Below the pieces are notes generated by a model. It did no database searches. It saw nothing but the letters and a program-made list of their open reading frames with translations, and had not been told where the DNA came from. Positions 60,355 through 63,556 of a stretch of DNA of 63,737 nt are shown one piece after another. The stretch spans positions 257,734,001 through 257,797,737 of the forward strand of contig CM097883.1 of assembly GCA_044892505.1 (NCBI GenBank), given 5' to 3'. The first letter of the stretch is position 1. Every line of letters begins with the position of its first letter. Made by a program: the position numbers and the translations under genes. Origin of the DNA: Schmidtea nova (taxonomy: Eukaryota).

Positions 60355-63300
60355 TGGTGCATTCTCTCACTCCATGTCCTTTCCTTAAGCAGTTATAACA
60401 TAATCTCCACTCTTGAACTAACTTTTTTCTGTCATTTACTGGCAATTGTTTGAATTGTGAGCATTGATCTAGATAATGTGCACCCGGACATTGGAAACAC
60501 ATCGACCTGCTTTGACCTTGTTGCATGATTATTCCTTCCCCACCTTTACTCGAGTTTTGTTTTACTTCATTGCCCGAGTTCGTAAAGTGTGAGTACCGTC
60601 TATTGTCATTCTTTTCGGAAGCCTTGAAGTTCTTCTGCCCATACTGCCAATTAGAGTCTTTTTCACGCCAAAATCCATATAATATCTCATTTGTCGATCG
60701 CGTAAGATCAGCTTCGTTTTGCAACCTCTCTTTTAACCGGGTTATTGATTCTTCCCCTTCATCTTTCGCTTGCTCTCTTTTCCATCGAATAAGTAGCGAA
60801 GCTGGCAATTTCTTTAACAATTGTTGCAAGAGACAGCCTCTCTGTAAGTCCTCTTCCCTTCCGATTGCTTTAAACCGTACCTCCATTGACTCCAACAATC
60901 CAACGAGAATATCCAAGTCTTTCATCTCTACTTCGCGAACCGGTCGAAATTTCTCTACGGTCTCTAACATAGTCAGATAACTACGTTCTTCACCTCCGTA
61001 ACGCCTTTCTAATTTCTCTTTCGCCATCTTGTAGCCATCGGCGGTATAACCCAGTGGCTCTATCATTCTCAGCGGCTCATCTAGCAAGTACTGCCTAAGA
61101 TGCAGCATTTTATCTTCGGCTGTTCCATCTGCCGTATCTATTACCGTATTGAAGGCCGCTTTCCACGTCTCAAACTCGACAACCTTCCCATCGAAAATCG
61201 GAATCTTTATTTTCTGCAACCGATTTAAACTCTTCTTTTCTCTTGGCGCTTCATATTCCGATGTCTTTGACCCCTCGCTCACAACACTTTGTTCTGTTCT
61301 TTTTTGCATTATCTTATCTATCTCTTCTTTTTTTGTTTCCAGCTCACAGATATCTTTTTCCACTAATTCTAACTCCTCCTTCTTGTTTAATTTGTCACAC
61401 AGCTCGACAAGTCTTAACCAATCTTCCAATGTATCCTCAAACTCTTTTTCATATAATACAAGTGTGTCCTTTATTTCCCCGACCATTTCTGCCAACAATA
61501 AGTTACGCGCTCGAGTTACTTTCCATTTTTTAGATCGCCGACGGGTCCATAAACTTTTGAACTCTTCCTCATCATTACCACCTCTTAAACGAAGAACAAG
61601 ATGAAGAGTAGATTCCTTTTGTATGTTGTAATCTGCCAAGATTCTTCCGCCTTCCAATTGTTTACCCGCAAATATCAATCTCTGTTGATCAGGTGGGATT
61701 CCCTCTTTATCTTGTATTCTCGTTTTTACCTTTTCTATTGTGTCACTTGATTCAACTTCCAGGGTAATGGTTTTCCCTGTTAACGTTCTTACAAATATTT
61801 GCAATCCCCCTTCCATTCTCAAAACTAGACCGCGAGTTGATTCCTTGGTGGGAATAGTCGTATTTCGATTAATTAACTTACTGAAAACGCCGCCCAGAGT
61901 TTCAACACCCAACGAAAGCGGTGTAACATCTAGCAATAATACCTCAATCACATACTCAGCAAGAACTCCTCCCTGTATTGCTGCACCCATTGCAACAGCT
62001 TCATCTGAATTCACACTCTTGCTAGGGGCTCTACCAAAATGTTTCTGCACAGTTTCTTGAACTTTAGGCATTCTTGTCATCCCACCAACTAACAACACTT
62101 CTTTAATATCCGATGTTTTTACCTTTGCATCTTTAATAGCCTTTTCACAAGATTCAATTGTTCTCTTAATTAGGTGCTCCACTAATTGTTCTAACTTTGA
62201 CCGTGTGAACCTTAAACTCAAATGTTTAGGTCCCGTATTATCCATTGTCAAATATGGAAGATTAATGTCCGTTTGAATAACCGATGACAATTCAATTTTA
62301 GCTTTTTCAGCTGCTTCTCTAACTCTCTGTAAAGCCATAGGGTCTTTATCAACATCAACGCCTTGATCACATTTAAATTCATAAAGAATATTTTGTAAGT
62401 GCACATTATCAAAATCTTCCCCACCCAAAAACGTATCCCCACTTGTAGATTTTACTTCAAAACTATTATTCAGATTTTTTATATAACTATCTAGCTTTAG
62501 CTTAATGATTTCCCAGTTGAAACACCCATAATTGATTTTAAATCCATAATTTTTAACCTCTCGCCCTATCTCTCTAATCATCGCTGTATTATAAATTATT
62601 TCTTTTGGAACACACTCCTTATTCACACAAGTCCCACCCATTTTATTTTTTCCAATTAAAGGAACAGATTTCCTATATTCATCTGCTCTCCTGGCTCGTT
62701 CATCCCCCAATTGAAAAGAATGCTGGGGCCCATAGCAGCATCTTTTCCGGTCCCTTAATGGACTCAACTCACCGCAAAACTTGTCAAAGGGCAGAGGGGA
62801 AAATGTTTCAACACAGGATAAAAATTTACAATTCATAAAATAATGTTCAAAGATATTACAAAAATACAGATTAAGAAAAGGTACCTTGTTCTGGCTGGAT
62901 AGCCAGAACAGTATTGCCCATGTTCCGAGAAGTACGTGGTCCCCCGATGGGAACCACGCTCTGCTACCAAAAATGATTCCATCAAAACGCAAAGCTTTAT
63001 TAAGAATTTTATTGTCAAATGATTCGAGCAAAATGATTCGAGCAAAATGATTCGATATTAGAGACAATATAGCGATTTGACCAACATTGTGTGTCGACAG
63101 AACTGAAGGCTCATCGTAATGAAATAATAAAGTTTCGAAAATAGAAAGGTCACAATTAAAGTTATCTAATTTCACAAATTTGGCACAACCATCAGGTTCG
63201 GCACCTGGTTTTGCAGACGAGAATCCTTTATATCCTAACTGAAGCATCGCTGGTTCGATGTCAGATAAGTAATATGAAATTTCAACTTCTTGGAGACAGA

Positions 63301-63556
63301 AAATGTCACAATTTAAATTCTCCAGATCCTTCTTAATATTTATCCATCGAATTGGCCAGTCAAGAAATCTCTGATCGCAATTTTCATAAAGAACATAACC
63401 ATTAACCAAATGACATTGAGCCAAAATATTGAGACTGGAACTCATCATTTGAAAACCAAATTTCCCGAACCATAGCATAGAAAACTTCCTTTTAAAACAA
63501 ATTCTTCCCTTCAAAATTTCATATCCAAACTTAAAAGACCGAAATTTCCCGAACAA
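60320..63556 (-). CDS. Chimeric polyprotein: Angel-like, glutathione reductase, mitochondrial-type HSP70 and ubiquitin fragments fused to BEL/Pao Gag; truncated by the Gypsy insertion
   Basis: 1078-codon uninterrupted frame; first in-frame ATG at 63478; domain motifs listed in the sub-features. Confidence 0.9.
60360..61576 (-). other. BEL/Pao Gag
   Basis: [21 protein letters not shown]...KMLHLRQYL...[22 protein letters not shown] and [14 protein letters not shown]. Confidence 0.9.
61577..61804 (-). other. Captured ubiquitin unit, 76 aa, intact LRLRGG
   Basis: [18 protein letters not shown]...[14 protein letters not shown]; nine differences from canonical animal ubiquitin by eye. Confidence 0.97.
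61844..62461 (-). other. Captured intronless fragment of mitochondrial/DnaK-type HSP70
   Basis: [80 protein letters not shown]. Confidence 0.95.
62462..62710 (-). other. Captured fragment of glutathione reductase (redox-active disulfide region)
   Basis: ARRADEY...[21 protein letters not shown]...YGF...FNWEIIK.K.DSYI..LN aligns with GSR GGTCVNVGCVPKKVMWNTA...FNWRVIKEKRDAYV. Confidence 0.88.
62952..62969 (-). other. Primer-binding site resembling initiator tRNA-Met 3' end
   Basis: TGGTAGCAGAGCGTGGTT is the complement of AACCACGCTCTGCTACCA, 4 nt after LTR-terminal CA (62974). Confidence 0.8.

Follow-up and report, generated by a model that had tools for sequence, protein, structure and literature searches.

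The start codon of Ty1 lies in its LTR. The primer binding site (PBS) of Ty1 is located inside the translated GAG frame, and mutations introduced into the PBS at nt 335-347 were chosen so as to leave the Gag sequence unaltered (PMC5454406). In cytopathogenic pestiviruses, captured ubiquitin is described as a processing signal from which host hydrolases release the downstream protein with an authentic N-terminus (PMC8310069, PMC13517609). LTR-mediated retroposition, described in animals and in maize Bs1, captures pieces of several host genes by template switching; LTR sequences flank the retrocopies, loss-of-function changes are present in 14 of the 21 older ones, and ubiquitin is unmentioned in the available part of that paper (PMC5131818). 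Deubiquitinase domains have been described in DNA transposons (PMC2836005), and the accessible text of a further paper (PMC5408684) does not mention ubiquitin. Among the titles and abstract openings searched in the open literature (Repbase, GyDB, Dfam, subscription journals and supplements were outside this scope), none described ubiquitin as a fixed part ahead of Gag in any lineage of retrotransposons.

We analyzed a window of 63,737 nucleotides from Schmidtea nova (contig CM097883.1; all positions count from its first base), which carries a BEL/Pao element on the minus strand at its end (Table 1). From ATG 63478, one minus-strand frame stays free of stops across an Angel fragment, the end of the LTR, the PBS, a glutathione reductase fragment, a mitochondrial Hsp70 fragment, a polyubiquitin piece and Gag, in this order. 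This frame contains two stops between 63737 and 60300 (at 63559 and 60322), compared with 112 and 80 in the other two minus-strand frames. The final 11 codons of the listed 1052-aa open reading frame lie inside a nested gypsy element.

The element resembles other BEL/Pao elements (Belpaoviridae) in its DUF1759 Gag, zinc knuckles, protease region, TG..CA LTRs, PBS and purine tract, but it differs from them in carrying, before Gag, ubiquitin and a leader of 550 residues that is made of host pieces and starts in the LTR, and in having no reverse transcriptase (RT), RNase H or integrase. As in Ty1, the PBS is read within a frame that leads into Gag; however, the Ty1 read-through is Gag itself (PMC5454406), whereas that of the window element is host-derived and split from Gag by a ubiquitin cleavage site. 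PBS read-through alone is already known, and the wider finding is the lineage-wide ubiquitin-Gag junction. In the available descriptions, pestivirus inserts share with the window a mosaic build, other host pieces upstream and a damaged ubiquitin N-terminus, but they belong to sporadic RNA virus isolates, whereas here ubiquitin is a heritable feature of a retrotransposon lineage (PMC8310069, PMC13517609). The captures in the available part of PMC5131818 are likewise in sense orientation and often in frame with the parent gene; in the window, unlike there, every piece is in the Gag frame and one of them lies within the LTR. The reading that we consider probable is a BEL lineage in which ubiquitin took over the position of Gag's initiator Met, with translation starting in the LTR, deubiquitinases releasing Gag and the leader collecting scraps of host genes.

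Table 1 Features of the BEL element and of the nested element in the window
Feature	Position	Strand	Basis
5' LTR of BEL element (part seen)	62974..63726	-	match to 3' LTR; end from CA, PBS, terminal inverted repeat
Three in-frame ATGs in LTR (63478, 63448, 63445), candidate translation starts	63445..63478	-	sequence; 63445 has A at -3
Captured Angel (CCR4-like EEP) fragment, aa 6-138	63065..63463	-	ANGEL2 6rvz residues 49-177 of 429, E 2e-17
Three copies of 14-nt unit at Angel/LTR-end junction	63014..63055	-	sequence; contains GAATCA, as at LTR end
Two AATAAA, candidate poly(A) signals, <=40 nt from LTR end	62996..63013	-	sequence
PBS, read in frame within FGSRAWF	62952..62969	-	sequence; single copy in window
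Putative intron-like GT..AG stretch, 105 nt, in frame, stop-free	62780..62884	-	base composition
Captured glutathione reductase fragment, aa 261-335	62474..62698	-	E 8e-14
Captured mitochondrial Hsp70 fragment, aa 337-548	61835..62470	-	Pfam HSP70 E 1e-85
Decayed tail of preceding ubiquitin unit, with in-frame ATG 61816	61805..61846	-	sequence comparison
Ubiquitin, aa 559-634, own Met lost, C-terminal LRLRGG intact	61577..61804	-	Pfam E 8e-28
BEL Gag (DUF1759, zinc knuckles), broken by nested gypsy	60356..61576	-	DUF1759 E 2e-9
Nested Ty3/gypsy element	53761..60354	+	LTRs 723 nt with 1 mismatch; 5-bp target duplication
BEL remainder: Gag end, protease region, N/E-rich frame	51868..53755	-	sequence, Pfam
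3' LTR of BEL element	51031..51803	-	purine-rich tract before it; ends in N gap

The two LTRs could be aligned over 736 nt (63726-62991 with 51766-51031; 99.3 % identity, 5 mismatches, 0.68 % apart). An earlier note on this DNA had placed ATG 63478 inside the 5' LTR, had followed its frame through the Angel fragment, the LTR end at 62974 and the PBS, and had reported the Angel fragment in both LTRs. These claims were borne out: the ATG falls within the stretch common to both LTRs, the PBS-coded peptide forms aa 170-176 of the frame, and both Angel copies lie in the aligned 736 nt. Its assignment of the element to BEL also held, on the DUF1759 match and on the closest relative, P0121, which carries a Pao peptidase and RT. 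One of the five LTR differences makes an upstream ATG (63690, minus strand; 22-codon frame) in the 5' LTR only, and the single difference inside the Angel piece is synonymous.

Each LTR boundary is visible in one copy, the TG start in the 3' LTR only and the CA end in the 5' LTR only. In the 5' LTR the CA (62975-62974) is followed by four T and then by the PBS from 62969. An N gap (50487-51030) cuts off the 3' LTR some 17 nt short of its end, for which reason the LTR end was deduced from the CA, the PBS and a 5/6 terminal inverted repeat with the 3' LTR start at 51803. A purine-rich stretch before 51803 represents the polypurine tract. The start of the 5' LTR probably lies beyond the window end; the last 11 nt of the window cannot be aligned with the 3' LTR unless a gap is introduced. 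On the far side of the N gap, a short tandem repeat (50332-50438, minus strand) shares GCAATGTC with these 11 unmatched bases (63727-63737, minus strand), and the 5' LTR could be truncated within this repeat. No tRNA gene, host Angel gene or solo LTR was found in the window, and an exact look-up of six window proteins gave no match.

It is very improbable that the chimera arose in assembly as a mosaic in which repeats and host transcripts were joined, or that it represents a domesticated gene of the host. The assembly is gapped and of short-read type (11 N runs), and since both BEL LTRs abut contig ends, a collapsed-repeat mosaic is possible for the exact bases. For this reason the argument of the earlier note, that an Angel fragment in both LTRs speaks against an artefact, is weaker than stated; it is fair in that the LTR copies differ at 5 sites, so neither is a verbatim gap-fill of the other. 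A mosaic also sits poorly with the nested gypsy, whose clean 5-bp target duplication and younger LTRs are as nesting predicts, and with the ubiquitin-Gag junction, which recurs in eight independent proteins (see below). In addition, the host pieces are decayed and are not current host copies, and the window copy is broken twice.

Among the candidate starts, the in-frame ATGs 63448 and 63445 stand in a stronger context than ATG 63478, and the Angel match starts at aa 6 of the frame from ATG 63478. Short out-of-frame ATGs precede ATG 63478 at 63732, 63690 and 63522. The next best match of the Angel fragment after human ANGEL2 was CNOT6L (E 5e-7). The fragment covers the EEP domain's N-terminal part only, with the first motif broken by a 2-residue insertion, and a complete EEP domain is absent. 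AATAAA is expected 0.024 times in the last 45 nt of the LTR and 0.40 times in the whole LTR; the pair near the LTR end places Angel in R or U3, and of these only R fits translation. In HIV-1, the 5' poly(A) site is suppressed by a downstream splice donor site. A long R would need a similar suppression, which the donor-like site at 62884 could provide.

Gag might instead be made from an internal start, ATG 61816 or 62641, reached by splicing, internal entry or transcription from downstream of Angel, which would then lie in U3; ubiquitin would still process Gag, and Angel would be a passenger. We judge this unlikely. Both ATGs have A at -3 and G at +4, 61816 stands four codons before ubiquitin, and the TATAAA at 63232 inside the Angel piece, the AATAAA near the LTR end, the donor-like site at 62884 and the ubiquitin Met retained in the relative P0177 point in the same direction. 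The earlier note had named an efficient start just before ubiquitin and Gag as the contrary case. An in-frame candidate does exist at 61816, but it is separated from the PBS by 15 out-of-frame and 8 in-frame ATGs, and the out-of-frame ones disfavour scanning to 61816, though not splicing or internal entry. As we read it, the donor at 62884 differs in phase from the two AG sites that closely precede 61816. Further points against an internal start are that only 4 of 5000 shuffles leave the linker open, that the relative P0136 has the same PBS frame and that the nested gypsy has an LTR-internal start.

On the preferred reading, the frame from the LTR is translated across the PBS, which we take to be of the initiator tRNA-Met type. 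Just past the PBS, the intron-like stretch has 29 % GC, compared with 55 % and 51 % in its flanks, and a pyrimidine run before its AG; the frame is kept with or without its removal.

All captured host pieces are partial. The Hsp70 fragment scored higher with mortalin (321 bits) than with DnaK (271 bits). It overlaps the ubiquitin piece at KES, a possible trace of microhomology at capture. The two units in the ubiquitin piece (aa 545-634) indicate a polyubiquitin origin. The downstream unit is identical to the commonest unit among the fetched polyubiquitins at 67 of 76 positions and differs at 9. While the upstream GG site is decayed (4 of 14 residues changed), the one on the Gag side is intact, and LRLRGG is followed by Asn, not Pro, as a ubiquitin-fusion cleavage site requires. 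Immediately after ubiquitin, the window (61576), P0121 and P0130 have Asn or Gln, and the others have Ser, Gly or Met; N-terminal Asn and Gln are destabilising under the N-end rule.

Gag searches yielded 159 related proteins. In eight of them (P0121, P0129, P0130, P0136, P0138, P0144, P0177 and P0199), the same Gag helix is immediately preceded by ubiquitin or by its C-terminal tail. The GG is kept in seven of the eight, and Pro follows in none. Pfam detected ubiquitin in 5 of 30 scanned relatives. The Gags of this lineage are 27-45 % identical over the aligned part, and P0121 represents the autonomous type, with RT and Pao peptidase. A Gag profile search returned two proteins, of which the one new protein is without ubiquitin, and P0190 aligned weakly near the junction, without a ubiquitin tail. 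When ubiquitin plus Gag was used as the query, only polyubiquitins were seen among the 120 matches listed, and ubiquitin was listed in none of the ESM Atlas clusters of DUF1759 (at 0.85) or DUF7041 (at 0.77).

A tree of the DUF1759 core was built from 69 rows (the 60 best non-ubiquitin relatives, the eight ubiquitin relatives and the window, out of 156 matching). The eight ubiquitin rows, the window and three N-terminally truncated rows lie on one side of a 98/98 branch; the tree is unrooted, this 12-row group was drawn after a quick tree, and three of the ubiquitin rows are long branches. On the other side, P0131 and P0150 have a Met of their own as first residue, immediately ahead of the homologous helix, and ubiquitin thus appears to stand where the initiator Met was.

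The read-through from LTR to PBS proposed in the earlier note gained support from an independent relative with the same PBS-coded peptide in frame. P0136 (about 35 % identity) consists of Met1, FGSRA at aa 10-14, an Hsp90 piece (E 1e-11), ubiquitin (polyubiquitin match from aa 143-144) and Gag. By chance, 0.015 occurrences of FGSRA are expected over all 159 N-termini. From this peptide in the protein sequence, we infer an LTR upstream of it in P0136. The PBS peptide is present in only one of the eight ubiquitin relatives, and six of the eight begin within about 20 residues of ubiquitin or inside it. In P0177, the Met at position 1 of ubiquitin is retained, and the 77 residues upstream of ubiquitin contain no PBS peptide. 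In the ubiquitin branch, P0138 and P0197 contain in-frame CFAP58 and CCDC149 pieces, respectively, downstream of Gag. P0138 has CCCH fingers where knuckles are expected.

All four host pieces in the window element are in sense orientation and in the Gag frame, with a chance of 1 in 81 for the frame and 1 in 1296 for frame and strand together. The non-homologous linker (aa 139-260) was stop-free in 4 of 5000 dinucleotide shuffles; its post-LTR part was stop-free in 52 of 5000 and its LTR-internal part (aa 139-168) in 640 of 5000, which is not significant alone. A shuffle of the whole leader (0 of 1000 open) was not counted as evidence because captured coding sequence brings its open frame with it. 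Of 93 sites that are nearly invariant in 80 bacterial DnaK sequences (which themselves depart at a mean of 0.29, low by construction), 10 are changed in the Hsp70 piece, which has no stop. Three of the ten departures are shared with human mortalin and seven are element-specific. From the change rates of the Hsp70 and ubiquitin pieces, taken against bacterial DnaK and the fetched polyubiquitins and not against host orthologues, 3-5 stops are expected in 558 codons and the chance of none is 0.010-0.034; with the seven element-specific Hsp70 changes this chance, calculated by hand, is about 0.06-0.09. These figures suggest, with moderate confidence, that the leader is under selection for its frame and not for its protein content.

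Positive selection on the content of the leader, whether for promoter or 5' UTR signals, for disguise from small-RNA silencing or for a decoy role of the released leader, seems quite unlikely to us. It would fit the observations that both intact-LTR elements in the window begin with a host piece, that the donors are abundant housekeeping mRNAs and that the same-branch relatives P0138 and P0197 carry further host pieces in frame. However, different elements carry different pieces, these are domain fragments undergoing decay, and abundant mRNAs are also co-packaged by chance.

Downstream of the leader, the BEL element has both a BEL-type Gag (DUF1759, triple knuckle) and a protease region, the latter 37 % identical to P0121 and P0129 and frameshifted between 53534 and 53502. 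RT, RNase H and integrase are absent from the element, and no Pfam family was found in 51871-53502; the copy thus reads as a non-autonomous derivative that is now broken. In place of the three absent domains there are about 360 codons of an open, N/E-rich, coiled-coil frame (51868-52960, minus strand), for which no match was found. P0138 has its CFAP58 piece at a comparable place.

The gypsy insertion (60354-53761) splits the BEL Gag knuckle, and the LTR divergence of 0.14 % in gypsy versus 0.68 % in BEL is consistent with the nesting order. ORF1 of the gypsy starts at ATG 54141 in the LTR and passes through a PP2A-A piece (E 6e-47), across the PBS and through an eIF4A-family piece (E 5e-5) and RMRGG into Gag; its aa 103-318 were open in 1 of 5000 shuffles. 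AATAAA and TATAAA are found at 54036-54045, upstream of ATG 54141, which suggests that the PP2A-A piece is in U5. The leader appears to include the PP2A-A start plus its upstream sequence. The domain before RMRGG was modeled with a pLDDT of 47, and the model has a strand and helix order like that of ubiquitin; no match was found at E <= 0.001 or Z >= 5, nor in Pfam. ORF1 (54141-55100, plus strand) also gave a weak PAS-domain match (E 0.8). It is conceivable, although we find it doubtful, that two unrelated LTR superfamilies converged on a frame led by host mRNA and cut at the GG of ubiquitin or a ubiquitin-like domain, with the leader selected as a host disguise that aids expression or counters silencing; ubiquitin capture would then have turned the LTR and 5' region into an exchangeable slot and the lineage into an unusually active shuffler of host coding sequence.

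Other parts of the window were also inspected. A second, decayed gypsy pol lies at 16405-19108 (minus strand), near which no ubiquitin or shared leader was detected. A GIY-YIG nuclease-like frame is duplicated at 23560-24808 in a perfect 322-nt inverted repeat that adjoins an N gap and may be an assembly fold-back. An intronless TBP-like frame (28748-29206, minus strand; Pfam E 2e-10) and a chromodomain-like frame (33316-34094, plus strand) surround a mariner transposase (30494-31345) and are possibly remnants of a large DNA transposon. The segments 6393-6764 and 14630-14995 (plus strand) and 45681-46034 and 47712-49449 (minus strand) hold what are probably exons of host genes (aminotransferase class I/II, scramblase), together with a non-LTR retrotransposon in decay.

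The proposed mechanism can be set out as follows. Ubiquitin would have replaced the initiator Met of Gag in a BEL/Pao lineage, of which the window holds a non-autonomous, broken copy. Transcription would start in the LTR, upstream of the Angel piece, and scanning ribosomes would begin at the first usable LTR ATG (63478-63445) and read through into ubiquitin and Gag. Host deubiquitinases would then cut after LRLRGG and free Gag with a proper N-terminus, as the conserved junction and the pestivirus precedent suggest. Host mRNA pieces may have been acquired by template switching during reverse transcription, and those landing in the LTR would be copied to both LTRs. Because the leader is cut off, only its frame would matter, so that sense, in-frame host pieces could survive while decaying as proteins.

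If this is true, a retrotransposon lineage has a natural and heritable form of the ubiquitin-fusion trick, by which the 5' end of Gag is freed from constraint. It would offer a reason for the build-up of in-frame host pieces in some elements when captures mostly decay. The element could also serve as a system for studying how host genes are captured, as happens in retroviral transduction, since the steps would be stacked in one frame. Annotators are warned that 'genes' for Angel, Hsp70, PP2A or ubiquitin in genomes of this kind may be parts of transposons.
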